64,000 nt of DNA from a virus: the IMG/VR virus record IMGVR_UViG_3300016469_000426, positions 3,785 through 67,784 of that record; one strand, given 5' to 3'. Each line of letters opens with the position of its first letter. Position 1 is the stretch's first letter. Under the pieces are notes generated by a model. That model was not told the origin of the DNA, ran no database searches, and saw only the letters and a list, made by a program, of their open reading frames with translations. This document shows positions 2,740-62,280 of this stretch, piece after piece. The translations under genes were made by a program, and so were the position numbers.

Positions 2740-4071
2740 TTAGATAGGAACCACGTTACATGGTGTACAATCGTACACATCCAATGTTACGCAGTTCGCA
2801 CAGTTTTCAAGCCATGTTGTGAGGAACGTCTCAAGAGCAGCATTACGGCCGGTTGAGATAATCTCCAACATGTACTGGTCGTTATCAAACACACCTGTTG
2901 GGTTGTTCAAACGAGGAACATTGTGAAGGATGAAGTAACGAGTGTAAAGCGCATTACGATTTACAGAGTTCAAGATTTGGTCACCCTGAGTGATTTCACG
3001 GATACGAATATCAGTCGCGAAGAAGTTTTGCAGATAAGACTCAGAAAGAATCAAGTCGCGAACAACTTGCTCTCCGAAGCCCATTCCTTGAAGACCGCGA
3101 CACTCTTGGTATACGCAAAGACCTTCGAACACGCAAGGATCTCCGTTGTAATCCACAAGAGATGCGTAGATCAACACTGGCTCTTTTTCGAAGAAGTCAG
3201 TCAGCTGGAAAGAGCAGTTTCCAAACTTTGTTTCTACGTAAGCTCCGAAGAGACGAAGACCAGCACATGCATTTGCAGTGTGTCCAGGAGACACATAAGC
3301 ACTCCACCATTGAGCCGGCGTAATAGCATTACCCTGTGGGTCAACAGTGCTGTTTGGCGGGAACCATGCTGTTCCGGCTTCGTCATAAACAATTGGGAAC
3401 AAGAATGGAGTTAAGTACTGGTTTTCAACGATAGCTTGAGCCCACTGGATCATTACTAAAGTTGAATCAACCGGAGTAGGTGTAGGACCTGTGCAACATC
3501 CGGTGTAGGCCATCACGGTCTGGTAAGCCTGGTGATTCAGGTAACGCAGAGCTGGAGATCCCTTCACATCAATGCGAAGGTAATAGGTCTCATCACAAAG
3601 GAACTTTTTGCAGCAAAGAGGATCCAATGGTGAAAGAGTTTCAGTGTACGGAGTGTTTCCGATAGAAGTCACAGACTGCTGAGGAGCACACTCTTCCACT
3701 ACGTACGCCTTACTGATGTACTTAGGGTTGATAATTTTTGACTTGTTGGACTCTTTATAACCACCATGGAAAGGTCCGATCTTGTCATTTGCTAACAGGG
3801 AACCTGAAGCAAGAACAAGAGGACAACAAGCATTGTTTGACGCAAAGGTCAAATCAACAGACTGATACGTCTTAGGATCAAAGAATCCATAGGATCCTGG
3901 TCCATAGATCGTGTTGGGTGCACCAACAGTATTACCAAGTGCAGAAGATGGAATCCCTGCTACTGTGATAAAACCATTCGTCATGTTGACGTTCGGGTTT
4001 TGACCGGCCCCAGCTCCGGTTACCTGCGTTCCTAAGAAGCGCTTGGTAAAGGCATGATTAAAATACGCCAT
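2740..4071 (-). CDS. hypothetical Cys-rich structural protein
   Basis: 443 aa ORF, many Cys pairs (CC, CxxC), tight spacing. Confidence 0.5.
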   Translation of the reverse strand: MAYFNHAFTKRFLGTQVTGAGAGQNPNVNMTNGFITVAGIPSSALGNTVGAPNTIYGPGSYGFFDPKTYQSVDLTFASNNACCPLVLASGSLLANDKIGPFHGGYKESNKSKIINPKYISKAYVVEECAPQQSVTSIGNTPYTETLSPLDPLCCKKFLCDETYYLRIDVKGSPALRYLNHQAYQTVMAYTGCCTGPTPTPVDSTLVMIQWAQAIVENQYLTPFLFPIVYDEAGTAWFPPNSTVDPQGNAITPAQWWSAYVSPGHTANACAGLRLFGAYVETKFGNCSFQLTDFFEKEPVLIYASLVDYNGDPCVFEGLCVYQECRGLQGMGFGEQVVRDLILSESYLQNFFATDIRIREITQGDQILNSVNRNALYTRYFILHNVPRLNNPTGVFDNDQYMLEIISTGRNAALETFLTTWLENCANCVTLDVYDCTPCNVVPI

Positions 4072-23410: not shown

Positions 23411-25006
23411 TTAAGCTAGTTCTACAGATAGTACTCCAGCATTAGTAAAGATACGATACCTGTTACCATTAGTTCTGTCTAACACAATGAAACCGCGATT
23501 ATTGGTGAGAGTTTCAACATCTCCGTTTACAGTAAGTTTAGATGTGATACCAGCATTAGTACCAATACCTACGTTTCCGGAACCATTCAGGTAAGAATCT
23601 GCTGTTTTAGATAAAGCAAAGCTTGGAGTAGTAGAGAGCCATCCCAAGAATAAAGCATCATCATGAGTACTTTCCATGTATCCGGAAGAGTAATTACCGT
23701 ATCCCATTACAATAGCTCCTCTATGAGAAGCTTTAGTAAAATACCCAACAGCTACACCATTTTGTGCACGAGCTTCAGCAAAAGAACTTAAGCTTAGTGA
23801 ATCTACAGAATTAGCTATGGTAGATACCCCGATGGCAATAGAATTTGCACCTGAAGCGGCAGCTAGATAAGCTATAGCCACCGAAAAGTTTCCAGAAGCA
23901 GTACATTGGGTACCAAGAGCCAGTGCCGCAAAAGCAGAGGCTGTACCAAAAGAACCGATAGCTGCGGCATAATCTGCTGTAGCAACAGATTGTGTACCTA
24001 GAGCTGTAGTTGATGGCCTTGTTCCGGAAGAATAAATCCCCATTACTACCGCGTTTGCACCTGTTGCGCTGGCCTCCTGTCCTATTACGATAGAAGCTCC
24101 GCTACCTAATGTGGTATTAGCATTAATACCCATGATAATACCACCATCATCTCTCAGATATGCAAGAGCTGCATCAGCAAAATTACGAATGTGTAAACTG
24201 TAAGTAGAATTACCAGCTCCAGCTCCTTTAACATTAAAAGTAGCATTACCGGTAATAGCATTCACCATTACTTTGGTATTCTGAATATAAATTTCTGGAA
24301 CTACACTGATTGCAGGAGAAGCCCCATCTACAATAAGAGCAATACTAGATATGTTGCTCTCGTTAGAAATTACAAGATTACCGGTGGTGCTTTTTGAAAG
24401 AACATATGCTCCTTGATACCAAGTCCCGACCTCATCTGTTTTCCCGTGAAGTGTAAGATGTGCAGTATCTGAACCACCAACCATGTATGATAAACGAGCA
24501 TATCTTGTAGGTCCAGTTTCCAACATCGCAGTTACAGGCTGACCTGCTCCGCTTTTATTTACATGTAGTTCATAAAGAGGAAGAATATTGATACCAACTT
24601 TTGCGTCATTGAGTGTTCCAAACTGAAGACTATGCCCACCAAAATTTACTGATCTTGGACCAGTAAATGTTCCATTACTGTTATAGATATTTACACTTAC
24701 CGGTGGAGGTAAAAGATCTATGAAATCTTCAATACTAACTGCAAAATTTTGGTAACTGCTTTGATTTCTGGAATCTTTTACTTTTTTACCAATGACCAAA
24801 AGATCTGCATTTTCTAGTTGCAATTCTGTAATCAAACGGCCGTTAGCTATAATGGCGGGAAAGTTTACAACATCCATGTGATAACTGTATTTACTATAAT
24901 ATACAGAATTATCATCACTTTGCCAAATTTTTTGTTGCCCGGGAACGATTTGAACGTCCGTTCTCTGGTCCAAAACCAGATGTCCTGCCGCTAGACGACC
25001 GGGCAT
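23411..25006 (-). CDS. tail fibre / receptor-binding protein
   Basis: 531 aa, Gly/Ala/Ser/Asn-rich beta repeats (GANSIAIGV, GNVGIGTNAG). Confidence 0.55.
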   Translation of the reverse strand: MPGRLAAGHLVLDQRTDVQIVPGQQKIWQSDDNSVYYSKYSYHMDVVNFPAIIANGRLITELQLENADLLVIGKKVKDSRNQSSYQNFAVSIEDFIDLLPPPVSVNIYNSNGTFTGPRSVNFGGHSLQFGTLNDAKVGINILPLYELHVNKSGAGQPVTAMLETGPTRYARLSYMVGGSDTAHLTLHGKTDEVGTWYQGAYVLSKSTTGNLVISNESNISSIALIVDGASPAISVVPEIYIQNTKVMVNAITGNATFNVKGAGAGNSTYSLHIRNFADAALAYLRDDGGIIMGINANTTLGSGASIVIGQEASATGANAVVMGIYSSGTRPSTTALGTQSVATADYAAAIGSFGTASAFAALALGTQCTASGNFSVAIAYLAAASGANSIAIGVSTIANSVDSLSLSSFAEARAQNGVAVGYFTKASHRGAIVMGYGNYSSGYMESTHDDALFLGWLSTTPSFALSKTADSYLNGSGNVGIGTNAGITSKLTVNGDVETLTNNRGFIVLDRTNGNRYRIFTNAGVLSVELA

Positions 25007-25015
25007 TGTAATCAG

Positions 25016-25087
25016 AGACCCTGGAGAGATTCGAACTCCCGACCATCTGATCCGTATTCAGAAGCGCTTCCGCTGCGCCACAGGGTC
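25016..25087 (-). tRNA. tRNA-Arg (anticodon ACG)
   Basis: Hand-folded: acceptor GACCCTG/CAGGGTC, T-loop TTCGAAT, anticodon loop ATACGGA. Confidence 0.7.
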
Positions 25088-25094
25088 AAATTGG

Positions 25095-25167
25095 GGTGAC
25101 CGGCGAGATTTGAACTCGCAACCTTCTGCGCCACAAGCAGACGTTCCACCGATTGAACTACGGCCAC
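25095..25167 (-). tRNA. tRNA-His (GTG)
   Basis: Acceptor GTGGCCG/CGGTCAC, loop TTGTGGC. Confidence 0.7.
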
Positions 25168-25169
25168 AG

Positions 25170-25243
25170 AGCCCGAGGACGGAATCGAACCGCCGACCCT
25201 CTGTTTACAAAACAGTAGCTCTAACCCGCTGAGCTACTCGGGC
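25170..25243 (-). tRNA. tRNA-Thr (TGT)
   Basis: Acceptor GCCCGAG/CTCGGGC, loop TTTGTAA. Confidence 0.7.
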
Positions 25244-25251
25244 TAATATTG

Positions 25252-25324
25252 TATCCCGGACGGGATTTGAACCCGTGTGACCAGACTGAAAACCTGGGAT
25301 CCTAGACCACTAGATGACCGGGAC
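25252..25324 (-). tRNA. tRNA-Glu (TTC)
   Basis: GTCCCGG acceptor, 3-bp D-stem, loop TTTTCAG. Confidence 0.7.
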
Positions 25325-25389
25325 ATGTGAGTGTTCGGGAGACCTGGTACTATATCTCCTCCTTTATCAGGCGTCATTATCACTCGTTG

Positions 25390-25463
25390 TTGCGGGAATG
25401 GGATTCGAACCCATGTCGTTCGGCTTATGAGACCGAGCTGGAACCGCTCCAGTCCACCCCGCA
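25390..25463 (-). tRNA. tRNA-Met/Ile2-type (CAT), atypical 4-nt acceptor-to-D linker
   Basis: Acceptor TGCGGGG/TCCCGCA, loop CTCATAA, D-stem CTGG/CCAG. Confidence 0.55.
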
Positions 25464-25471
25464 TTATTTTG

Positions 25472-25545
25472 TAGGCCCTACCGGGTTTGAACCGGTGACC
25501 TTTACCTTATAAGAGTACTGCTCTGACCAGCTGAGCTAAGGGCCT
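25472..25545 (-). tRNA. tRNA with anticodon TAT (Ile, AUA-reading)
   Basis: Acceptor AGGCCCT/AGGGCCT, loop CTTATAA, one G-A mismatch at top of anticodon stem. Confidence 0.5.
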
Positions 25546-25554
25546 ATTACTTGG

Positions 25555-25626
25555 AACCCCTGACCAGACTCGAACTGGTAACCTTGAGCTTAGAAGTCTC
25601 TTGCTCTTCCATTGAGCTACAGGGGC
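25555..25626 (-). tRNA. tRNA-Arg (TCT), weak anticodon stem
   Basis: Acceptor GCCCCTG/CAGGGGT, loop CTTCTAA. Confidence 0.5.
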
Positions 25627-25634
25627 AGCTTCAG

Positions 25635-25706
25635 TTCCCCCGCCGGGAGTCGAACCCGGCCCCATAGATTAAAAGTCTATTGCCTACACCAGTTTGCTAC
25701 GAGGGA
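25635..25706 (-). tRNA. tRNA-Lys (TTT), weak D-stem
   Basis: Acceptor TCCCTCG/CGGGGGA, anticodon stem ATAGA/TCTAT, loop CTTTTAA. Confidence 0.55.
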
Positions 25707-25808
25707 ATGTTAAATCATGCTGACTTACGTCTGCACTTTATCTTCTTTCGTATCAAGCTGTTGTATAACATGACTGTTAAATCTTCTTTTTTGCTTTGTT
25801 AATTGTTG

Positions 25809-25886
25809 TAGGAACAGAAGGATTCGAACCTTCGACTGACCCTGCTTGTAAGGCAAGCGCTCTGAACCGGGCTGAGCTATGCTCCT
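25809..25886 (-). tRNA. tRNA-Val (TAC), 7-nt variable loop
   Basis: Acceptor AGGAGCA/TGTTCCT, loop CTTACAA. Confidence 0.6.
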
Positions 25887-25894
25887 ATTTTAGT

Positions 25895-25965
25895 TGACAT
25901 GGCAGGGATTGAACCTACGACCTCCCGCGTATCAGGCGGATGCTCTACCGCTGAGCTACATGTCA
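25895..25965 (-). tRNA. tRNA-Ile (GAT)
   Basis: Acceptor TGACATG/CATGTCA, loop CTGATAC. Confidence 0.7.
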
Positions 25966-25972
25966 ATGTTTG

Positions 25973-26045
25973 CGGACTGTATAGGGTTCGAACCTATGAC
26001 CCTCGCCTTAACAGGGCGCCGCTCAGCCAACCGAGCTCACAGTCC
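25973..26045 (-). tRNA. tRNA-Asn (GTT)
   Basis: Acceptor GGACTGT/ACAGTCC, loop CTGTTAA. Confidence 0.65.
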
Positions 26046-26049
26046 ATTG

Positions 26050-26126
26050 CGGTCTATGTCGGAGTCGAACCGACCTGATGTCCCGCGTGACAGGCGGGTG
26101 TCCACAACCAAGCAGACCCATAGACC
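26050..26126 (-). tRNA. tRNA-Asp (GTC), 7-nt variable loop
   Basis: Acceptor GGTCTAT/ATAGACC, stem CCCGC/GCGGG, loop CTGTCAC. Confidence 0.6.
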
Positions 26127-26131
26127 ATTAG

Positions 26132-26205
26132 AGCGAGTGATGAGGCTCGAACTCACAACACCCTGCTTGGAAGGCAGGTACTCTAGCCAATTGAGCTACA
26201 CTCGC
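26132..26205 (-). tRNA. tRNA-Gly (TCC)
   Basis: Acceptor GCGAGTG/CACTCGC, loop CTTCCAA. Confidence 0.7.
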
Positions 26206-26318
26206 AGTATCAACACTGATGAGGCTTTTTCAGAACTTAAGCTACACCCAGCATAGCATACGGCCTTTAACCGTTCCTCATCCTCCCGCTTCTGGATTAC
26301 AGGAGTTGTTTCAACTTG

Positions 26319-26393
26319 TGGAATGGCTGGGATTTGAACCCAGGACCTTCTGCTTGCAAAGCAGCTGCTCGACCAGACCGAGCTCCGCACCCC
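26319..26393 (-). tRNA. tRNA-Ala (TGC) with G3-U70
   Basis: Acceptor GGGGTGC/CCATTCC (G3.U70, one C-C mismatch), loop TTTGCAA. Confidence 0.55.
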
Positions 26394-26447
26394 TAGTGAC
26401 CCTTTTCTTTAATTTTCAGTTTGTGGCGGCCGATCCATATCTGCTAG

Positions 26448-26520
26448 TCGGAGTTGCTGGACTCGAACCAACGGTCTCCTGGTCCCAAACCAGGCGCGAT
26501 ACCAACTTCGCTAAACCCCG
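26448..26520 (-). tRNA. tRNA-Pro (TGG)
   Basis: Acceptor CGGGGTT/AACTCCG, loop TTTGGGA. Confidence 0.7.
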
Positions 26521-26523
26521 TAA

Positions 26524-26560
26524 ACAAAAAAAGCCCCTGATTTCTCAGAGGCTCTTTCTT
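26524..26560. terminator. hairpin flanked by A7 and T-rich tracts (bidirectional terminator-like) inside tRNA array
   Basis: agcccctga tttc tcagaggct, flanked by aaaaaaa and ctttctt. Confidence 0.4.
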
Positions 26561-26751
26561 ATCAAGTTAATCCAAAATTCTTATTTCATGATGGACACAA
26601 CAAGAGCCTCTACGCAATTCGGTTCGTCACCTTTGCGCACGATATTCATTTGGGCCGTATGTTGTATGTTTCTCATTTGCGTTACAAATATACAAACAAT
26701 TTATACATGTGCAACACAACATGTATATTTTTTTTTGATTTTCTTTATATG

Positions 26752-26825
26752 TACTCCCGACCGGACTCGAACCGGTAGCTTACGGATTTTAAGTCCGCTG
26801 TGTTTACCCATTTCACCACGGAAGT
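26752..26825 (-). tRNA. class-I tRNA with anticodon TAA (Leu codon UUA) but short variable loop and Gln/Glu-type 3-bp D-stem; identity uncertain
   Basis: Acceptor ACTTCCG/CGGGAGT, stem GCGGA/TCCGT, loop CTTAAAA, variable AAGCT. Confidence 0.5.
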
Positions 26826-26829
26826 ATTG

Positions 26830-26907
26830 TACCCTCTGAGAGACTCGAACTCTCACCCGAAGACTAGATCCTAAGTCTAGCGCGTCTACCAATTTCGCCA
26901 AGAGGGC
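26830..26907 (-). tRNA. tRNA-Leu (TAG) with short (9-nt) variable arm
   Basis: Acceptor GCCCTCT/AGAGGGT, stem CTAGA/TCTAG, loop CTTAGGA. Confidence 0.55.
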
Positions 26908-26914
26908 GTATTAG

Positions 26915-27000
26915 CGGAGAACAGTGGCCCTGATCCACAATCGTAATATTACGATCAGACTGCTTAGCAGGCAGCTCCTACCCAGGTAGGTTTATTCTCC
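26915..27000 (-). tRNA. tRNA-Ser (GCT)-like, class II, atypical T-loop
   Basis: Acceptor GGAGAAT/GTTCTCC, loop CTGCTAA (as in E. coli Ser-GCU), long variable hairpin ATCGTAATATTACGAT, T-loop ATCAGGG. Confidence 0.45.
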
Positions 27001-27004
27001 ATTG

Positions 27005-27077
27005 AGGTACCGGCGTGATTCGAACACGCGTACTCGAGTTTTGCAGACTGAGGACTAAACCGCTCATCCACGGTACC
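27005..27077 (-). tRNA. tRNA-Cys (GCA)
   Basis: Acceptor GGTACCG/CGGTACC, loop CTGCAAA. Confidence 0.6.
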
Positions 27078-27083
27078 TTGTTG

Positions 27084-27156
27084 CACATGAGGAAGGGGTC
27101 GAACCTCCGACACCTGGTTTTGGAGACCAGTGCTCTACCATCTGAGCTACTCATGT
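27084..27156 (-). tRNA. tRNA-Trp (CCA)
   Basis: Acceptor ACATGAG/CTCATGT, loop CTCCAAA. Confidence 0.7.
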
Positions 27157-27160
27157 ATAG

Positions 27161-27251
27161 CGGAAAGCGGAGGACCCGACCCCCAGTCCAGTTACCCAGA
27201 CACCCGGTTTTCAAGACCGGTCGCGGCTCCAATGCCACTGCTTCACTTTCC
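27161..27251 (-). tRNA. tRNA-Ser (TGA), class II, atypical T-loop
   Basis: Stem CCGGT/ACCGG, loop CTTGAAA; similar to E. coli Ser-UGA; T-loop TCGGGT. Confidence 0.5.
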
Positions 27252-27256
27252 AATTG

Positions 27257-27340
27257 TGGGACCCGGTGGACTCGAACCACTCCTCCGAAGAGACCGAATT
27301 TACAGTCCGGCTGCCGTATCCAAGACGACTTTCAGTTCCC
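27257..27340 (-). tRNA. tRNA-Tyr (GTA), class II
   Basis: Stem CCGGA/TTCGG, loop CTGTAAA, variable hairpin CTCTTCGGAG. Confidence 0.6.
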
Positions 27341-27348
27341 ATGTTTTG

Positions 27349-27421
27349 TGGAGCCACCTGGTATCGAACCAGGATCTCAGGATTTTCAGTCCCACGCATA
27401 GACCGTCTTTGCTATAGCTCC
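27349..27421 (-). tRNA. tRNA-Phe (GAA)
   Basis: Acceptor GGAGCTA/TGGCTCC, loop CTGAAAA. Confidence 0.7.
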
Positions 27422-38237: not shown

Positions 38238-38837
38238 TTGAAAATTAACAAAAAGGTGTATCTTTGCGGCATGACTTCAGCCGTATACATCATCAGAAAT
38301 ACTGTAAACAGCAAGATTTATGTCGGAAGTTCTCAAGATCTAAAAGGAAGATGGAAAACCCATCTTGATAAACTTCGTATAGGTAGGCATCACAACAAGA
38401 GACTTCAACACCATTACAATAAATACGGAGAACAATCTCTCATCATGGAAATTCTGGAAGAGGTATCGCACAATCTCTTAATACTTAGGGAACAGTACTG
38501 GATGGACAAACTGCAACCTTGGTTTAATCTTTGTCCTATAGCTGGAAGCTCCAAAGGAAGGGTATGTACTCAAGAACATAGAGCAAACTTATCTAAGGCT
38601 CACATTGGCAAAAAACATTCCGTAGAAGCCAGATCAAAAATGTCCGCTTCTCATAAAGGTACCAAGAAACCTTGGGCAAGAGGTAAAGGCAAATTAACTA
38701 TAGGACAGGTGCTGAAAATAAGAGATGAGCTCAGTATCAAATCTTGTGCTCAACTCGCAAAAGAATATGGAGTGAAGAGTTCAGCTATTAGCAAAATCAA
38801 ACAGGGTAGAACCTGGAACACCCTTTCTTTGTCCTGA
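38238..38837 (+). CDS. GIY-YIG homing endonuclease (I-TevI-like, with NUMOD3 repeats and C-terminal HTH)
   Basis: VYIIRNTVNSKIYVGSSQDLKGRWKTH (GIY-x10-YIG...R...H); three KGK/GK...S.E.R.K.S repeats; ...KSCAQLAKEYGVKSSAISKI. Confidence 0.8.
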   Translation: MKINKKVYLCGMTSAVYIIRNTVNSKIYVGSSQDLKGRWKTHLDKLRIGRHHNKRLQHHYNKYGEQSLIMEILEEVSHNLLILREQYWMDKLQPWFNLCPIAGSSKGRVCTQEHRANLSKAHIGKKHSVEARSKMSASHKGTKKPWARGKGKLTIGQVLKIRDELSIKSCAQLAKEYGVKSSAISKIKQGRTWNTLSLS

Positions 38838-39436: not shown

Positions 39437-40546
39437 ATGAGCAGACTTGTTAATGCAGCACGTAGCTATGACGCTACAACAAATAAAGGAGCAGTTACTC
39501 ACTCTACCTCCTTGAACTTCTGTCTCGATATGTTCTTCCTTGCAGGAGCATCTCGCAATATGGACGAGAAGTCTATGATCACCATCTTTGAAAGAGCTTA
39601 TGCTCAAGATCCAAACATTGCGGCCAAGATTTTATTCTGGTCTCGTGATGCTCGTGGTGGTGCAGGTGAGCGCCGATTCTTTCATACAATTATGCGACAT
39701 ATTCTGGATAAATATCCTGAGGTTGCAGACAAACTAATGGTACATGTACCAGAGTTTGGGTATTGGAAGGATGTGTTCGCAATAGAGAAACCGAACGAGA
39801 ACAACCTTAACTGGTTGAAACATTCTCTTGAGGAATCTCCTAATGCGAATCTCTTGGCCAAATGGTTCCCGCGCAAAGGTCCATGGTTTGTAGCCATGCA
39901 TCGTTATCTTGGTATGACGCCTAAAGAATTTCGCAAGAAACTCGTGGCAATGACTAAGGTAGTAGAAACGCAGATGTGTAACCAAGAATGGAAAGGTATC
40001 AAGTACGAAGCAGTACCTTCTATCGCGATGAATAAATACCGCAAGGCATTTTTCAAACACGATGAAGAACGTATGAAAGCATACGTTGAGGCCGTACATT
40101 CAGGTGAAGCTAAGATTAACGCATCAGTACTATTCCCTCATCAATTGTATCAAGCAATTAATAAAGGGGAGAATGAGCGTGCAGTCGAAGCACAGTGGAA
40201 TAACCTACCAGATTATATGGAAGGATCAACAGAACGCATCACTCCGGTGTGTGATGTATCTGGAAGTATGATGGGATTACCTATGGACGTAAGTGTAGCG
40301 CTGGGGATTTATATCTCTGAGCGTAACAAAGGTATCTTCAAAGATGCCTTCTTGACTTTCTCTGAAAGACCTGAGATGCAATACCTGAAAGGGTCACTTG
40401 CTCAAAGAATGCGTCAGCTGAATCAAGCTCCATGGGGTGGTACCACAAATCTGCAGTCGACCTTTGACTTAATCCTCAACAGTGCAATCAGAGAGAAAAT
40501 CTCTGAGGATGAAATGCCAACCAAGATCTTAATCATCTCGGATTAA
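39437..40546 (+). CDS. vWA-domain protein, 5' exon (frame stops at TAA 40544-40546 at intron start)
   Basis: MIDAS motif DVSGSM; ends ...KILIISD; preceded by taaatctaagccgtaATG. Confidence 0.65.
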   Translation: MSRLVNAARSYDATTNKGAVTHSTSLNFCLDMFFLAGASRNMDEKSMITIFERAYAQDPNIAAKILFWSRDARGGAGERRFFHTIMRHILDKYPEVADKLMVHVPEFGYWKDVFAIEKPNENNLNWLKHSLEESPNANLLAKWFPRKGPWFVAMHRYLGMTPKEFRKKLVAMTKVVETQMCNQEWKGIKYEAVPSIAMNKYRKAFFKHDEERMKAYVEAVHSGEAKINASVLFPHQLYQAINKGENERAVEAQWNNLPDYMEGSTERITPVCDVSGSMMGLPMDVSVALGIYISERNKGIFKDAFLTFSERPEMQYLKGSLAQRMRQLNQAPWGGTTNLQSTFDLILNSAIREKISEDEMPTKILIISD

Positions 40547-41504
40547 TCTTAGTCCCTCTCAGTAGAAATACTGATGAGAAAACGCTTTAAATTGCGGGAA
40601 ACTCTTTAGAACTCTAATTACCAACTCATCACAGTAATGTAGATGAGGGTGTTACTAATCATAACAGTATGGTAAAAACATTAGAGATTAGACAATCCGC
40701 AGCCAAACTTGTAAAATTATTTGTGTACGTGGAATTTAAACTGTATATTTGTTGTATGAAAACAAGACAATATACACTAGATGAAGACTTCTTCTCTGTC
40801 ATAGACAGTGAAGAAAAGGCTTATTGGTTAGGCTTTATATTTGCAGATGGTTCAGTAACTGTCCGGAGTGCTGGACAAGCCGTACTGCAAATAAAATGTC
40901 ATATTAAAGACGCAGCTCATCTAAATAAATTCCACAAGGATATTGGTACAAACAAGCCTATTAAATATTATAGTCAGAAAACAGTCTACTCAAATAGTAA
41001 GTATGCTCAATCAGCTTTAATATCTAATACACTTGTACAAGATTTAATCTCAAAAGGATGTGTTCCCAGAAAGAGTTTGATTCTCAAATGGCCTAACAAT
41101 CTTACAGAAGAATTAGCTCCTCATTTTATGAGAGGTTATTTTGACGGAGACGGCTCAATATGTGAAACAACTCAGAAAACCAAGCATGGTATCTGGAAAC
41201 ACCCTGCAATCAGTATTTGCGGAACAAAAGAGTTCCTTACCGAGTTTGCTAAAAGATTGAATATTGAAAAGTGTATCTATCCTGAGTACAGAAAAAAAGA
41301 CAAAAATTGTTGGTCTCTCAAGCTCAGCTCAAAAAAAAGATGTAAATCTTTCTTTGACTTGCTTTATAAAGATCAACATGTATGTCTATCTAGAAAACTT
41401 GAAAAGTTTTTAGAATTACAAGGAGGTTCAACGACTACAATAAGCGCACCTACACAGGTGATGGTATAGTCTGATCTTACATGAGAATGTAAGCTAACAT
41501 AATG
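40544..41504 (+). mobile_element. group-I-like intron interrupting vWA gene, carrying LAGLIDADG endonuclease
   Basis: Exon 1 ends on U (40543), downstream in-frame continuation MEFDSACSY... begins after G 41504; boundaries inferred from protein continuity. Confidence 0.5.
40669..41469 (+). CDS. LAGLIDADG homing endonuclease (double-motif)
   Basis: AYWLGFIFADGSV and MRGYFDGDGSI motifs. Confidence 0.8.
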   Translation: MVKTLEIRQSAAKLVKLFVYVEFKLYICCMKTRQYTLDEDFFSVIDSEEKAYWLGFIFADGSVTVRSAGQAVLQIKCHIKDAAHLNKFHKDIGTNKPIKYYSQKTVYSNSKYAQSALISNTLVQDLISKGCVPRKSLILKWPNNLTEELAPHFMRGYFDGDGSICETTQKTKHGIWKHPAISICGTKEFLTEFAKRLNIEKCIYPEYRKKDKNCWSLKLSSKKRCKSFFDLLYKDQHVCLSRKLEKFLELQGGSTTTISAPTQVMV

Positions 41505-41795
41505 ATGGAGTTTGATTCAGCTTGTAGTTATCGTAGATCAGGAACAAACCTAGATATCATCCGCGAAAAGTACCAGCAAGCTGGTTACAAGATGCCGGAG
41601 ATTATCTTCTGGAATGTAAATGGTCGTATCGGCAATTCTCCTGCACAGAAGAGTGATAAGGGAATCGGTCTTGTATCAGGATTCAGCCCGTCTATCTTGA
41701 AGTCAGTATTGAAAGGTGAGATCTACTCTCCTGAACAACTGATGATGGATACAGTGAATGTTGATCGATACAGACTCATCCAGGTAACTGAATAA
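41505..41795 (+). CDS. vWA-domain protein, 3' exon
   Basis: In frame with exon 1 after removing 40544..41504; exact 3' splice site within +/-3 nt. Confidence 0.5.
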   Translation: MEFDSACSYRRSGTNLDIIREKYQQAGYKMPEIIFWNVNGRIGNSPAQKSDKGIGLVSGFSPSILKSVLKGEIYSPEQLMMDTVNVDRYRLIQVTE

Positions 41796-41844
41796 GATCG
41801 GAGTATTATCCCGCTTGGCAACAGAAGGGATATCATGATATTGC

Positions 41845-41882
41845 GAGAGAGCTGTGACTTCACCACAGCTCTCTTGTTTTTC
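41845..41882 (+). terminator. Rho-independent terminator after vWA gene
   Basis: gagagagctgtg acttcacc acagctctct tgttttt. Confidence 0.55.
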
Positions 41883-41958
41883 ATCTTTGAGTAAAGAGGA
41901 ACAACTCAAAGCTCTGAAGGAAAGCTCGTTCCTCGAAAAACCATCTAAAAATCTAAGC

Positions 41959-42732
41959 ATGAAAATTGAACAAGTGCGAAAGCACCCAGCGCACGCGCTG
42001 CTTGCTGCAACTATCGGTGAAAAAGCAGCCGATGAAGCCATCATCAAAATGATGGAGGAAGAAATCAAGAAGAACCAAGCAGAGACTGAGTTCTCTACCG
42101 GAACTAAACGTATCATTCTTCCAGCCACAATGAATAAGTTGCAGGCAGCAAAAGAATTGAAGCGTCAGTGGGATGACGAAGAACAGGTAATTAATGTGGA
42201 CAGAATGTTCGGTGAATGGAACTGGAGAGATGTCCTTGTTGCAGTAAAGAAAGCTGCAGAACGTCACTTTGGTTGGATCCAAGGTAAGACTGTACATACC
42301 TTCTTCGGTACTCAGCGCCCTACAGACATTGAGATTGTCGTTGATATCAAAGACGGCAAGAAAATTACTGAGACCTGTTTCTACGGACAGTTCACCGCAA
42401 CTGTTTGGGAAGATGCAGTGGTCGAAGTAGGACCGAGCCACATCAGCGCAACTGTGAAGAAGCGCTATGCTCATGAAGCAAAAGAATTTTTCGACCTGAT
42501 CCAGAAAATCCTGGACACTGAGTCGATCTACCGTGGACGTGCAATCACTGTTACAAAGCAGACTTCACCATGGGGTGAGATCTCTTTGGATTTCGATATC
42601 TTCGAGATGAAGGTATCCGACAAGATTGTATTGAACGAAGACGTGGACACTGTTGTTCGCAACTTCATCATTGACGATCTTGGTGAAGATGGCAAGCGTT
42701 GCTATCTTTTCTCAGGTGGTTATGGAAATGGT
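41959..42732 (+). CDS. AAA+ ATPase, 5' exon (ends GGYGNG, first half of Walker A)
   Basis: Start after ctaaaaatctaagcATG; ...DGKRCYLFSGGYGNG then ORF frame runs into intron (stop 42751). Confidence 0.65.
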
Positions 42733-43756
42733 AGAATCAGAAATTTTGCGTAACTTTGTCACATGACAAAGTATGAACAAGGTGAAGAGTTATACAGACA
42801 AGGTATGTTCTTAAAAGACATTGCTCTGGAGCTAAAAATATCAGCTCATAGACTATCTGTATATCTCAGGAAAAGAGGTGTTCCGAAGAACCCTCATCAT
42901 TACAAGGCAACTGTAAAGTCTACTCTTAGAACCGACATCTTCAAAGATATCGATACTAAGGAGAAAGCCTATTGGCTCGGTTTTATCTTTGCTGACGGGT
43001 ATGTTTCAGAAAGAAACGTTTTTGAAGTGGCGCTATCCATTAAGGATATCTCTCACTTAGAAAAGCTAAAGCTCTTTCTAGGGATAAGCAATCCTATAAA
43101 GATTACAGACACAAGTTGTAGATTATATGTAACTGACAAGACTTTTGTTGCACACCTTAATAAGCACGGTGTTGTACCAAGGAAATCTCTTATCCTCAAG
43201 TATCCATCAATTGATCGAGCCTTTGACAAAGCTTTCATGATGGGCTATTTTGATGGAGACGGATGTCTTACATATAATCGTGTTAGAAAAAGACTTCAGC
43301 TCAGTCTAATAGGAACACCAGAGTTCCTAGAAGCATATAAGAAGAGACTTTCTACTACAGCAAAGCTGACTCTTTATCAGGATAAAAGACATAAGCCACA
43401 AACAAGATATATCTCCGCAGCTGGAAAACACGCTGTAGAAATCTATCAGCAACTTGTAGATGATTCCCCTATACACCTTGAGAGAAAACGCAAAGTATTC
43501 TCTGCCGCGCTAGGTAGTAATACTTAGTGTTATTAACGGGTAAAAACGGTGAAGGCTGAAATGCTAATACCGTGCTAAGACTTCTGATTACGAAAGGCAG
43601 AAGTACAGTGTAACGCATAGTCGGTGAATAAATATAATCCGACCAAGAGTATCCGTCACCCAAACAGTAAAGCTGTGGGTGAAAATGTATGCTGAGCTCA
43701 CACGAAAGACAAGTGTGAGAATCACAGGATAAAAAGCCTGTGAGATAACAAAACTG
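42733..43756 (+). mobile_element. group-I-like intron in AAA+ ATPase gene, carrying LAGLIDADG endonuclease
   Basis: 5' exon ends on U (ggT|aga), intron ends on G 43756; 244-nt structured tail after HEG ORF; splicing fuses GGYGNG|KT. Confidence 0.65.
42763..43527 (+). CDS. LAGLIDADG homing endonuclease with N-terminal HTH
   Basis: AYWLGFIFADGYV and MMGYFDGDGCL motifs. Confidence 0.8.
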   Translation: MTKYEQGEELYRQGMFLKDIALELKISAHRLSVYLRKRGVPKNPHHYKATVKSTLRTDIFKDIDTKEKAYWLGFIFADGYVSERNVFEVALSIKDISHLEKLKLFLGISNPIKITDTSCRLYVTDKTFVAHLNKHGVVPRKSLILKYPSIDRAFDKAFMMGYFDGDGCLTYNRVRKRLQLSLIGTPEFLEAYKKRLSTTAKLTLYQDKRHKPQTRYISAAGKHAVEIYQQLVDDSPIHLERKRKVFSAALGSNT

Positions 43757-44422
43757 AAAACAGAAACAGCTATGCGTATCGGTTCAGCCGGCCTTACAAA
43801 AGGTATGGCGTACTTCTACTGCAAAGATGCCGATGTATTCCACATGCTTCTTGGCCAAGCTAAGAACTACCAGCCGTGCATCGTGTTCCTTGAGGACGTG
43901 GATGAAATCGGTGCAGGTACCAAGCGTGATGCCGACATGAATAAGATCCTGAATACTCTGGATGGTGTACAGACTAAGGGTAACAACCTTACTGTAATCT
44001 TTACAACCAACCATGAGAAGCGTATCAACCCGGCTCTCCGTCGCCCAGGTCGTATTGACCTTGTGGTGAACTTTGAGAATCCGGACAAAGTTGCCGTTGC
44101 AGAAATCTATCATCGTTATCTGGCTCCATTGGATACAGAAAAGTTGTTGGATTACAACGTGCTTGCTGATCGCACTCCGGACTGTCCTGGTGCAGTTGTT
44201 GCTGAAATTGCTAAGCGTGCAGTTAAACTCTGCAAGAAGCGTGGCGCAGTAAATGATGACCTGGTAAAAGCAGCAGTTGATTCCATGAAGCATCATTTGA
44301 AACTGATGAAAGAAGAAGTGGAAGAACCACGTACTGGTGACATGACCATCACGGTTAAGAATGCCAGCATGAACGTTTCTGAAGCAGCTTCTAAGAATGG
44401 AGCGGCTGTCAAAGCCAATTAA
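43757..44422 (+). CDS. AAA+ ATPase, 3' exon
   Basis: Begins KTETAMRIG...; Walker B CIVFLEDVDE, sensor-1 TTN, Arg finger ALRRPGRID. Confidence 0.65.
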   Translation, partial: KTETAMRIGSAGLTKGMAYFYCKDADVFHMLLGQAKNYQPCIVFLEDVDEIGAGTKRDADMNKILNTLDGVQTKGNNLTVIFTTNHEKRINPALRRPGRIDLVVNFENPDKVAVAEIYHRYLAPLDTEKLLDYNVLADRTPDCPGAVVAEIAKRAVKLCKKRGAVNDDLVKAAVDSMKHHLKLMKEEVEEPRTGDMTITVKNASMNVSEAASKNGAAVKAN

Positions 44423-44474
44423 TATTGTGAGAGAATGGGCTGGCAATTAGGCTAGCCCATACTCTTTTTACACT

Positions 44475-44666
44475 ATGAAAAACGTGTTCTTATTTCTCGT
44501 AGGAGCGATCGTTGTTATCGTTCTGAACGGGCTCTACTTTGAATACTGCGTGAGTAGAGAAATGCCATTGTTCTTGTCTACAGTTGCTACTATAGTTATT
44601 CTATTAGTAGATGTGCTGGCAATGGTATACGCGGTAAAGTTACTAATCAAAATACTCAAAATCTAA
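44475..44666 (+). CDS. small two-TM membrane protein
   Basis: 63 aa, hydrophobic. Confidence 0.45.
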   Translation: MKNVFLFLVGAIVVIVLNGLYFEYCVSREMPLFLSTVATIVILLVDVLAMVYAVKLLIKILKI

Positions 44667-44670
44667 GCAC

Positions 44671-45654
44671 ATGATCTCATTGATTATTATCCTGCTTTCA
44701 ATCGTTGTCGCTGTTGGATGGCTTATCTCCACACGAAGTAATGCGTTCGGACCGGAACAAAAAGATCGTTACGGCGATGTTACCCGACCTTTCAATCCAA
44801 AGTGGTTATTTACTCCGATCGCCATTGTTGTAGTAGGACTCCTGACCGGAATGATTCAGCCTTATTCCCTTGAAAGAGTAGACTCTGGACATATCGGTAT
44901 TAAAGTGAAATTGACCGGTAATGAACGCGGCGTATCTGATTACACATACAAAACTGGATGGGTCGTATACAATACCTGGACGGAGAACCTATATGAGTTC
45001 CCCACCTTTCAGCAGCATATTGAATACGATAATCAGATTGTGATAACCAAAGGAGGATTTCAGGCTACTATTAAACCAACATTCAACTATTCACTCAAAG
45101 CCGATGCCGTAGGGGATATGTTCTCTGAACTACGCCTCGACATAAAAAGTATTGAGAAGGGATGGTTAATGACAGCTATTGTTGGATCTGTTAATGATGT
45201 GGCCAATCGGTGGGCAGTGGATGACATTTTCAATAAACGAGAAGAGTTTGAATCTGCAATCGTAGCTGAATGTAATAAGCGTGTATCCAAATGGTTCAGA
45301 GTAAGTCAGCTTAGAACTAATATTGTTCCCCCTGAAGCGCTAAAAGCATCCATCGAGGCAAAGACTAAAGCTGTGCAAGATGCCCAAGCTAAAATGCAGG
45401 AAGCATTAGTAGCAGAAGCAGATGCAAAGAAAAAGATTGCTATTGCCAGAGGTGACTCAGCACAAGCTGTAATTAAAGCATCCGGTCTAGCTGAATCCGA
45501 GATAATCGAAGCTCGAGGTACGGCAGAAGCTATGCGACTTAAACAAAAAGAGCTTAATGCTCTCTATGTGGAGTTCATTAAAGCTCAGAACTGGGATGGT
45601 AAACTACCAACAACTGTATTAGGGAATAGTACCCCTATGATCAACGTTAAGTAA
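44671..45654 (+). CDS. SPFH (band-7/prohibitin/HflKC-like) domain membrane protein
   Basis: N-terminal TM; SGHIGIKVKLTGNERGV...NQIVITKGGFQATIKP core; Ala/Lys/Glu coiled-coil tail. Confidence 0.6.
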   Translation: MISLIIILLSIVVAVGWLISTRSNAFGPEQKDRYGDVTRPFNPKWLFTPIAIVVVGLLTGMIQPYSLERVDSGHIGIKVKLTGNERGVSDYTYKTGWVVYNTWTENLYEFPTFQQHIEYDNQIVITKGGFQATIKPTFNYSLKADAVGDMFSELRLDIKSIEKGWLMTAIVGSVNDVANRWAVDDIFNKREEFESAIVAECNKRVSKWFRVSQLRTNIVPPEALKASIEAKTKAVQDAQAKMQEALVAEADAKKKIAIARGDSAQAVIKASGLAESEIIEARGTAEAMRLKQKELNALYVEFIKAQNWDGKLPTTVLGNSTPMINVK

Positions 45655-57012: not shown

Positions 57013-57080
57013 GGAGGACGTAGCTCAGTTGGTAGAGCAACGGTTGCCGTGGGTCGTAGGTTCGAGTCCTACCATCCTCC
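57013..57080 (+). pseudogene. tRNA-like sequence with truncated anticodon arm (tRNA pseudogene or tRNA-derived element)
   Basis: GAGGACG TA GCTCAGTTGGTAGAGC (canonical D-arm) then ACGG-TTG-CCGT mini-hairpin, T-arm GTAGG TTCGAGT CCTAC, acceptor CATCCTC; ~68 nt. Confidence 0.4.
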
Positions 57081-61178: not shown

Positions 61179-61427
61179 ATGAGTAATCTAGAAAGTGTAA
61201 ACTTACAAGAAGTACAGATGAAACTGTACGAGAGGTTAAAACCCTCAGGCTGGGGAGATAAGCTTAAAGGCTTTCTCCTTAGCGATGATTTCGGAAAGAT
61301 ACTAGAGGTGCTACTTGCTGAGGCAAGAGATAATCGAAGGTTTACTCCCGTAATCAAGCAGCTATTTAGAGCATTCGAAGAATGCCCTTATAGCGATCTC
61401 AAGGTAGTCATGATCGGTCAGGATTAG
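61179..61427 (+). CDS. ung: uracil-DNA glycosylase (family 1), 5' exon ending ...KVVMIGQD
   Basis: FTPVIKQLFRAFEECPYSDLKVVMIGQD matches the UDG ...F.AF..TP...VKVVILGQDPYH block; frame stops at TAG 61425-61427. Confidence 0.7.
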   Translation: MSNLESVNLQEVQMKLYERLKPSGWGDKLKGFLLSDDFGKILEVLLAEARDNRRFTPVIKQLFRAFEECPYSDLKVVMIGQD

Positions 61428-62280
61428 TTGCACAGATCAACAAAAAGCTATACCTTCGTCAACAAAACTGTTGTGTATGGTATATGAGAGAATAGCTCCA
61501 ATGAGAAACTATGACAAGACAACTGATACGCGTAAGTGTAAGAAGTGTAATGAGTGGAAACCTCTATCAGAGTTTAGTAGTAGAGTAAGGATCGCAAGCC
61601 CTACTACCAAAGACCTTGTTAAGAAGGTACCTACATTATACTATAGAAGTGAGTGTAAAAGTTGTTCACTTCTATCAATACGTAAACCTGAATACTGTGG
61701 ACCTGATGCTCGTAGGAAACAACATGCATTAGATCCTCGTAAAGTGATGCTTGTTCATGCTCGAATCAGAGCTAAGAAGAAGGGTCTAGTATTTGGTATT
61801 ACTTACGATGATATCATAGTTCCTAAAGTCTGTCCATTACTTCAGATACCTATCCAAGTATCTAAGGGAAAAATAGGACCTGGTAGTCCTAGTATAGATC
61901 GCTTAGACCCTACAAAAGGTTATGTGAAGGGAAATGTCATGGTTATCTCTCATAAAGCAAATACTGCAAAGAATACACTAACTCTTGCAGAGCTTGAATT
62001 GTTGGTCCGTAACTTAAAACGGGTCCTGAATAAAGAGGAAGAATTGCTGGAAAGCTAATGAAATATGGGGCTCGGCATGGTAACCAGTCCATAGTCTAAG
62101 GAGGGAAGTACTCCTGTGGGCTCCACCATATTTTTATGCCAATCAGCAGCCGAGCCCAAGGGGAGACTTGGGAAGGTTCAGAGACTAGGGACACTACGGT
62201 GAGCCCAGAGCATCCTCCACTCAATAGAGTGATGATATAGTCCGATCCTCGTGGAAACATGAGACAAATGGATATAGCCG
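61425..62280 (+). mobile_element. group-I-like intron in ung carrying HNH endonuclease
   Basis: 5' exon ends on U 61424, intron ends on G 62280; 222-nt structured tail after HEG. Confidence 0.6.
61471..62058 (+). CDS. HNH homing endonuclease
   Basis: SIDRLDPTKGYVKGNVMVISHKANTAKN HNH core; N-terminal CKKC...C zinc motif. Confidence 0.7.
   Translation: MCMVYERIAPMRNYDKTTDTRKCKKCNEWKPLSEFSSRVRIASPTTKDLVKKVPTLYYRSECKSCSLLSIRKPEYCGPDARRKQHALDPRKVMLVHARIRAKKKGLVFGITYDDIIVPKVCPLLQIPIQVSKGKIGPGSPSIDRLDPTKGYVKGNVMVISHKANTAKNTLTLAELELLVRNLKRVLNKEEELLES

Follow-up and report, generated by a model that had tools for sequence, protein, structure and literature searches.

The 64,000-nucleotide (nt) stretch of viral DNA analysed here, referred to as the window (IMG/VR record IMGVR_UViG_3300016469_000426, positions 3,785 to 67,784), carries an AAA+ ATPase gene that breaks off in the middle of its Walker A motif, or P-loop, and resumes about 1 kb downstream. 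How is such a gene read? The analysis points with high confidence to one answer. The 1,024 nt at 42733..43756 very probably constitute a mobile, self-splicing group I intron of the IA type, similar to that of the phage T4 td gene, inserted between the Gly and Lys codons of Walker A and carrying a LAGLIDADG endonuclease gene. Positions are counted from the first letter of the window, and the ATPase exons, the intron and its parts all lie on the plus strand.

The two halves of the gene are plainly visible. The open reading frame (ORF) that starts at 41959 reads ...CYLFSGGYGNG and then continues as RIRNFA into a TAA stop at 42751-53, as the original prediction had described. The downstream frame crosses 43756/43757 as ...KL|KTETAMRIGSAG (KTETAMRIG) and has its first start codon at M 43772. 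It had been said to open at exactly the codons AAA ACA; it is in fact open from 43733, eight codons ahead of them and directly after a TAA at 43730-32. Joining U42732 to A43757 yields a protein of 479 amino acids (aa). Exon 1 (41959..42732) encodes the N-terminal domain and the first half of Walker A, ending in GGYGNG, and exon 2 (43757..44422) supplies the Walker A Lys-Thr, Walker B, sensor 1 and the arginine finger. Only after joining is the AAA+ motif set, GGYGNGKT, VFLEDVDE, TTN and RPGRID, complete. PF00004, the precomputed domain of the intronless homologues, scores 52 bits on exon 2 and is covered there at profile positions 43-130 only, and the spliced protein is collinear with the D2 domain of Cdc48/p97 through the junction (RCYLFSGGYGNGKTETA versus RGVLFYGPPGTGKTMLA).

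A natural intronless allele fixes the junction. A protein search with the spliced 479-aa sequence as query returns 287 relatives, the best of which, P0001, shares 99% protein identity, is likewise 479 aa long and runs unbroken through ...LFSGGYGNGKTETAMRIG... Its contig, L001, 120 kb long and from another metagenome, is colinear with exon 1 and with the window over many kilobases, and reads GGYGNGKTETAM without interruption. At the junction the DNA of L001 is GGTTATGGAAACGGTAAAACAGAAACAGC, and that of the window is GGTTATGGAAATGGT, followed by 1,024 nt and then AAAACAGAAACAGC. The insertion relative to L001 is therefore exactly 1,024 nt long. Its placement is ambiguous by 1 nt owing to a shared A, such that the intron could also be drawn 1 nt rightward, and the boundary choice with U before and G at the end of the insert is the one compatible with P1 pairing. 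The joined P-loop GGYGNG|KTETAM, which had been proposed from the frames of a single sequence and held to be hard to explain by chance, is thus no coincidence, as an allele 99% identical in protein is continuous at this point. An identical endonuclease protein in the same gene arrangement occurs on three contigs, which argues that the insertion is not an assembly artefact.

Substitutions that separate the window from the intronless allele are densest near the insertion. The interval 42679-42798 (positions −54 to +66 of the spliced sequence) holds 11 in a 120-nt bin, against 1-7 in the other 120-nt bins, and these include AAT versus AAC in the codon that precedes the last codon of exon 1. This cluster may be a co-conversion tract or may reflect drift of the target site, and the numbers involved are small.

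The RNA downstream of the endonuclease ORF holds the key to the nature of the insert. Its structured character, proposed from the outset, is borne out by the segment 43520-43770, which folds far beyond shuffled sequence (z = -5.2); the RNA that follows the ORF measures 229 nt (43528..43756) and not the 244 nt first given. The last ~256 nt of the insertion, with a ribozyme core beginning at 43501, belong to an RNA family. Two of the loci reached through relatives of the endonuclease carry a homologous RNA 3' of the ORF (alignment A1), and a motif scan built from invariant stretches finds more than 120 viral contigs among the matches listed. BLASTN locates homologous RNA in 32 deposited phage records, including the crAss-like phages cr6_1, cr7_1 and cr131_1, Staphylococcus phage ROSA, Bacillus phage PJN02, Clostridioides phages and a Leptolyngbya phage. 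Among deposited sequences, the RNA of the last of these, Lbo-JY46 (L149), comes nearest to that of the target (74.8% identity). It interrupts a DNA polymerase gene near ...RQKAKSA..., where, given a 1-nt boundary ambiguity, the exon reading does not permit a U at −1 together with a terminal G.

The fold of this family was tested on a 45-sequence alignment of homologous RNAs (A2), against six controls in which the pairing partners were slid and against 500 shuffles. The proposed pseudoknotted structure leaves 89.6% of cells paired versus 33-40% when slid, and its covariation score is 0.60 versus approximately 0.1 in the slid controls. Changes occur on both sides in 47 of the 58 pairs, and none of the 500 shuffles reaches the observed pairing and covariation values. 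Every helix covaries except P7, which is invariant. RNAalifold, blind to the proposed structure, recovers P4, P5, P6a, P7, P7.1, P8, P9 and P9.1. Furthermore, in cr6_1 and ROSA, both found by BLAST, the P7 strands GCAUA/UAUGC have become GCGUA/UACGC, a compensated change from A-U to G-C. Alternative P7 registers of the AGAGU/GCUC type were rejected, since GCAUA/UAUGC with a bulged C is the one that RNAalifold recovers and that covaries in these two phages.

The first helix joins the exon to the core. The 5' strand of P1, UGGU|AGA (42729..42735), contains the 5' splice site after U42732 and pairs with the internal guide sequence UCUGCCG (43501..43507), which corresponds to a family-conserved (U)UGCC(G) located directly 5' of P2. 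P1 is 7 base pairs (bp) long and includes a U42732·G43504 wobble. Its extension covaries with intron positions +1 to +3, being AGA/UCU in the window, AAA/UUU in the introns at L013 and L150, AAU/AUU in L147 and AUU/AAU in L114. A first candidate for P1, GUUAUU (43528-33) with AAUGGU, was dropped in favor of UCUGCCG because of the family-conserved position and the covarying extension of the latter. The guide is followed by P2 (43507..43530), a hairpin of ~10 bp with a GUAA tetraloop; across the family P2 covaries, with a GNRA-type loop on differing stems. A minimal construct with the ORF deleted is computed to fold both P1 and P2.

The remaining helices follow in order. P3 (43536-41/43651-56), P4 (43546-51/43568-73), P5 (43554-56/43563-65), P6 (43574-76/43607-09), P6a (43580-86/43598-604) and P7.1 (43620-24/43639-43) are each assigned by covariation. 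In P8 (43657..43681), a hairpin formed by 43657-62 and 43676-81 with an inner stem, all nine counted pairs change on both sides. J8/7, AAAAUG, and the 3' strand of P7 (together 43682..43693) complete the P3/P7 pseudoknot, and P9 (43697-703/43713-19) and P9.1 (43723-28/43737-42) are placed by the alignment and by RNAalifold. P7 itself pairs A43613 and 43615-19 with 43688-93 (UAUGCU), leaving C43614 bulged. The arrangement A43613-U43693, bulged C43614 and G43615-C43692 is invariant in the 45 sequences and fits the canonical layout, by analogy with which G43615-C43692 is the presumed guanosine-binding pair. The family's 3' tail, GAUAACAnnnnG, ends at the terminal guanosine (omega-G) G43756, immediately before the 3' splice site, at the junction fixed by L001. 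The proposed rule that the 5' exon ends in U and the intron in G is consistent with these assignments, as U42732 fits the P1 wobble and G43756 is terminal.

P3 thus encloses P4 to P6a, the 5' strand of P7 and P7.1, and this order of helices, with the 3' strand of P7 after P8, is the signature of a group I intron. J8/7, ahead of that 3' strand, is A-rich, and the bulge in P7 stands beside a G-C pair. The UAAC that is followed by P7 and immediately by P7.1, along with a 3' tail of the form AACAnAAUG, suggests a td-like member of the IA type. IA introns (IA2-like) are recognized by extra helices between P7 and the 3' strand of P3 (P7.1/P7.2 or P7.1/P7.1a), and P7.1 is such a helix. It is 99.6% paired with strong covariation, and many relatives carry an inner hairpin within it. 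In the target all family-invariant core positions are intact, and it scores 226.7 bits against the family model R1, a model built from sequences that include the target.

These structures present a model for the removal of the insert. In the pre-mRNA, the exon end UGGU and the intron's AGA would pair with UCUGCCG to form P1, placing U42732 opposite G43504, while the core from P2 to P9.1 (43501-43756) would fold with the P3/P7 pseudoknot at its centre. P7 would bind an external guanosine, which would then attack after U42732. The terminal G43756 would take its place in the same site, and the freed exon 1 would attack after G43756. The predicted ligated junction, ...GGAAAUGGU|AAAACAGAAAC..., would read GGU|AAA ACA, restoring GGYGNGKT and the normal 479-aa ATPase.

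Several results weigh against this assignment. A search of the whole window with Rfam, including the group I model RF00028, finds no match on the target insert at the gathering score. RF00028 alone reports nothing at E<=10 on 42650..43850 (1.2 kb) or on 43480..43800 (0.3 kb), and at the gathering score it finds none of 20 loci with homologous RNAs. R1 in turn matches nothing significantly in the T4 td and nrdB introns, and the link to canonical group I introns is accordingly drawn from topology and motif resemblance. Because the motif used to gather the 45 sequences prescribes the 5' strand of P7, the invariance of this helix is partly by construction. Finally, the automatic alignment leaves P3 just 67% paired, probably through misalignment between subfamilies, and P10 pairing is weak.

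The silence of RF00028 was itself examined with a control. On phage T4 (L148) the model gives the td intron 40.3 bits, under its gathering score of 50, and does not report the nrdB intron at E<=1. Its silence on the target therefore says little, and its failure was dropped as evidence against a group I intron. R1 does match, weakly (19 bits, E = 0.002), an RF00028-positive intron site in L022 that adjoins a related LAGLIDADG gene. The original prediction of a group I intron with a LAGLIDADG gene in Walker A gains support from the comparative fold and covariation and none from RF00028, the test that had been proposed for it and that proves uninformative. The case also shows that RF00028 overlooks a common lineage of phage introns, and that phage-metagenome censuses relying on it under-count. 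A recent intron database was seeded with this model (PMC11835236).

The intron carries its endonuclease gene in the loop of P1. The 254-aa ORF (42763..43527) has, as had been noted, two LAGLIDADG motifs, YWLGFIFADGYV and FMMGYFDGDGCL, and they lie in a single chain. Pfam LAGLIDADG_3 (PF14528) recognizes it with 28.7 bits, above the cut-off of 22.5, whereas PF00961 falls slightly short (21.8 bits, cut-off 23.1); PHROG 4645, 'endonuclease', matches at E = 2.8e-52. Other introns of the family carry homologues, 34-39% identical, in the corresponding place. The protein also has an N-terminal region of ~50 aa that is extra relative to the single-chain LAGLIDADG enzymes. The ORF lies in the frame of exon 1 with the single TAA at 42751-53 between them, and none of the 23 tRNAs of the window is a suppressor that would read it.

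Both ends of this ORF are tied to RNA structure. Its last ~27 nt (...S-A-A-L-G-S-N-T) are shared with the guide sequence and P2, and the ATG at 42763-65 with which it begins lies in the loop and 3' stem of a modest hairpin at 42749..42775 (-10.3 kcal/mol, z = -2.1). A single RNA could thus probably not be translated into the endonuclease and fold into the ribozyme at the same time. In the light of what is known of I-TevI, the hairpin suggests that translation is restrained and would not compete with ribozyme folding. The endonuclease presumably cuts intronless alleles such as that of L001 (...GGAAACGGTAAAACAGAAACAGC...), whose repair would copy the intron in. The natural intronless site in L001 is GGTTATGGAAACGGTAAAACAGAAACAGCTATG, and with two alleles 99% identical in protein, one carrying the intron and one lacking it, a ready-made homing site is at hand for testing a new LAGLIDADG enzyme.

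A dead gene, in which the intron or its remnant no longer splices and the ATPase is a recent pseudogene, is very unlikely. Splicing is a step that we infer, and the close relative L001 manages without the intron. The insertion could also be recent, as the exons differ from those of L001 at only 49 of 1,440 nt. These differences, however, fall in 46 codons, 40 of them synonymous and 6 non-synonymous, so that both exons, each of them open, are under purifying selection. The intact core positions and the R1 score, with the target's part in building that model kept in mind, likewise speak for a functional element, as do the intact endonuclease ORF and the recurrence of the intron-bearing allele on three contigs.

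It is hardly plausible that the gene works in pieces, with an endonuclease cassette having split the ATPase into two separately translated polypeptides that reassemble with no RNA splicing. Such an arrangement would resemble the mobE-split nrdA of phage Aeh1. Gene callers do call separate ORFs for the ATPase halves on other contigs, and the genome does hold a free-standing endonuclease gene, the GIY-YIG gene described below. A separate C-terminal fragment, however, could start only at M 43772 and would lack the P-loop Lys-Thr, the break falling inside the 8-residue P-loop itself. In addition, a split gene would have no use for ~256 nt of conserved, covarying RNA that forms a group I pseudoknot and includes a guide matched to the exon end. 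LAGLIDADG genes are also known from inteins, archaeal rRNA introns and a few group II introns, but the chance that the insert is an intein, a group II intron, an archaeal bulge-helix-bulge intron or a translational bypass is negligible, as an in-frame stop six codons into the insert excludes an intein, neither a reverse transcriptase nor a group II boundary sequence is present (the insert starts AGAAUC), a length of 1 kb excludes bypass, only ~290 nt are non-coding, no Rfam family matches, and the fold seen is the group I P3/P7 pseudoknot.

The probable group I intron of the ATPase gene is not alone in its choice of site. Of 86 distinct family members, 15 have a 3' exon that begins with Lys-Thr or Lys-Ser codons directly after the terminal G, where ~1 would be expected by chance. 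Reconstructed 5' exons end in the Walker A glycine: GGYGNG|KT in the window, GTKGTG|KT in cr6_1 (L147) and GVKGTG|KT in L142. Further P-loop sites are GSMGTG|KT in L114, ATGIG|KT in L059, SRAVG|KT in a terminase large subunit (L013) and GGGGMG|KS in a RecD/Dda-like helicase of Bacillus phage PJN02 (L150). The host proteins are not orthologues: the window ATPase and that of L142 are 26% identical over 115 aa, and BLASTP finds no significant match between the window ATPase and that of cr6_1.

A single clade of Walker A introns was considered and rejected. By RNA similarity, the nearest neighbour of a P-loop intron is another P-loop intron in only 4 of 14 cases. The endonucleases of P-loop introns are no closer to that of the target than is the endonuclease of a second intron in the window, which occupies a site outside any P-loop. 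The simplest reading is that a near-fixed guide confines the family to GGU|A sites, of which the P-loop Gly-Lys would be the most conserved. A wider reading is somewhat less likely than not: a large IA-type lineage undetected by the Rfam model, restricted to GGU|A by a nearly fixed UUGCC guide, may have entered Walker A between Gly and Lys time and again in unrelated nucleoside triphosphatases. Its hosts would include two AAA+ ATPases unrelated to each other, the large subunit of a terminase and, in a Bacillus phage, a RecD/Dda-type helicase. If so, the P-loop codons GGU AAR ACN/UCN would serve as a portable landing site between non-homologous genes in phages of distant hosts, and the lineage may be under-counted in surveys seeded with RF00028. 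The recurrent placement at Walker A codons is a clear case of selfish elements finding shelter in sequence that has no freedom to change.

The host of these elements is a large, distant crAss-like phage, probably of Bacteroidota. This assignment derives from the terminase, which shares ~25% identity with its crAss-like and Flavobacterium phage counterparts, and from the 23 tRNA genes. The tRNA array (24934-27421, minus strand) covers most amino acids and holds no suppressor, and an additional Rfam tRNA-like element at 57014-57080 (54 bits) goes unreported by ARAGORN. A near-identity DNA search of deposited phages (INPHARED) with the region and its 19.6-kb flank found no match.

Further mobile elements occur in the window. 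A second group I intron of 961 nt (40544-41504), with a LAGLIDADG ORF at 40669-41469, splits the adjacent DUF2828/DUF7788 gene between ...ILIISD and MEFDSA, with DUF7788 profile positions 5-113 before it and 114-193 after. It has canonical AAUUGCGGGAAAC and GAUGGUAUAGUC motifs, a U at −1 and a terminal G; its ORF is 36% identical to that of the target, and RF00028 misses it at the gathering score. A third group I intron (~61425-62277), with an HNH-type ORF at 61471-62058, is detected by RF00028 (73.9 bits at 61973-62264), and its boundaries, drawn by eye, suggest that it interrupts a gene for a uracil-DNA-glycosylase-like protein (...VVMIGQD|PYPYPN...). A free-standing GIY-YIG homing endonuclease gene (38238-38837; 199 aa, ...KIYVGSS...) lies in a ~600-nt block missing from L001. 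The two introns near the ATPase gene are missing from L001 as well, and that contig ends short of the third.

The ATPase gene stands between its neighbours in a conserved order. A DUF2828/DUF7788 protein with a DVSGSM motif, the AAA+ ATPase and a Band_7/SPFH protein follow one another over 39437-45654, and L001 keeps this order. Introns occur in two of these three genes, and the trio may be a functional module. For annotation, one spliced 479-aa ATPase and an intron-encoded endonuclease should replace three ORF calls, namely a fragment of 264 aa, an 'endonuclease' and an 'AAA' fragment of 216 aa.

The target can be set beside the T4 td intron with its endonuclease I-TevI, the archetype of group IA2. 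Each is a mobile group I intron in an essential phage gene, and in each the endonuclease ORF forms a loop outside the ribozyme. UAAC in J6/7 followed by P7 and immediately by P7.1, a U at −1, a terminal G and a 3' tail of the form AACAUAAUG are common to the two. They differ in their details: P7 is GCAUA/UAUGC in the target and GACUA/UAGUC in td, and a single P7.1 with an optional inner hairpin stands in place of the P7.1 and P7.2 of td. The ORF occupies the loop of P1 rather than P6a, and it encodes a LAGLIDADG rather than a GIY-YIG enzyme. Compared with RF00028 (Intron_gpI) as a whole, the target has the same helix order and P-, Q-, R- and S-like elements, whereas it falls outside an E<=10 match and its 20 relatives fall under the gathering score.

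A further parallel comes from a related host, at the level of Bacteroidota-type crAss-like phages. Group I introns are dense in some crAss-like groups and occur in the ATPase gene ATP_43b, among others (Yutin et al. 2021, PMC7886860). In the record of cr6_1 (NC_055894) the homologous ORF is annotated as an 'intron-encoded endonuclease' between ATPase fragments gp44 and gp42. The cr6_1 RNA belongs to the same family (179.9 bits to R1; the two cores are ~66% identical), has its homologous LAGLIDADG ORF 5' of the core and interrupts Walker A at the same point, GTKGTG|KTVMAK. The interrupted ATPase, in contrast, is a different and short (291 aa) protein with no significant BLASTP match to the 479-aa protein of the window. 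The endonuclease resembles the single-chain LAGLIDADG enzymes of PF14528 and PF00961 in having two motifs in one intron-encoded 254-aa chain, and its closest solved structure by sequence is 2DCH ('putative homing endonuclease'), a very weak match at E = 0.004. Phages are well known to carry mobile group I introns with homing endonucleases in the conserved motifs of their essential genes, and the target is a new member of that kind.

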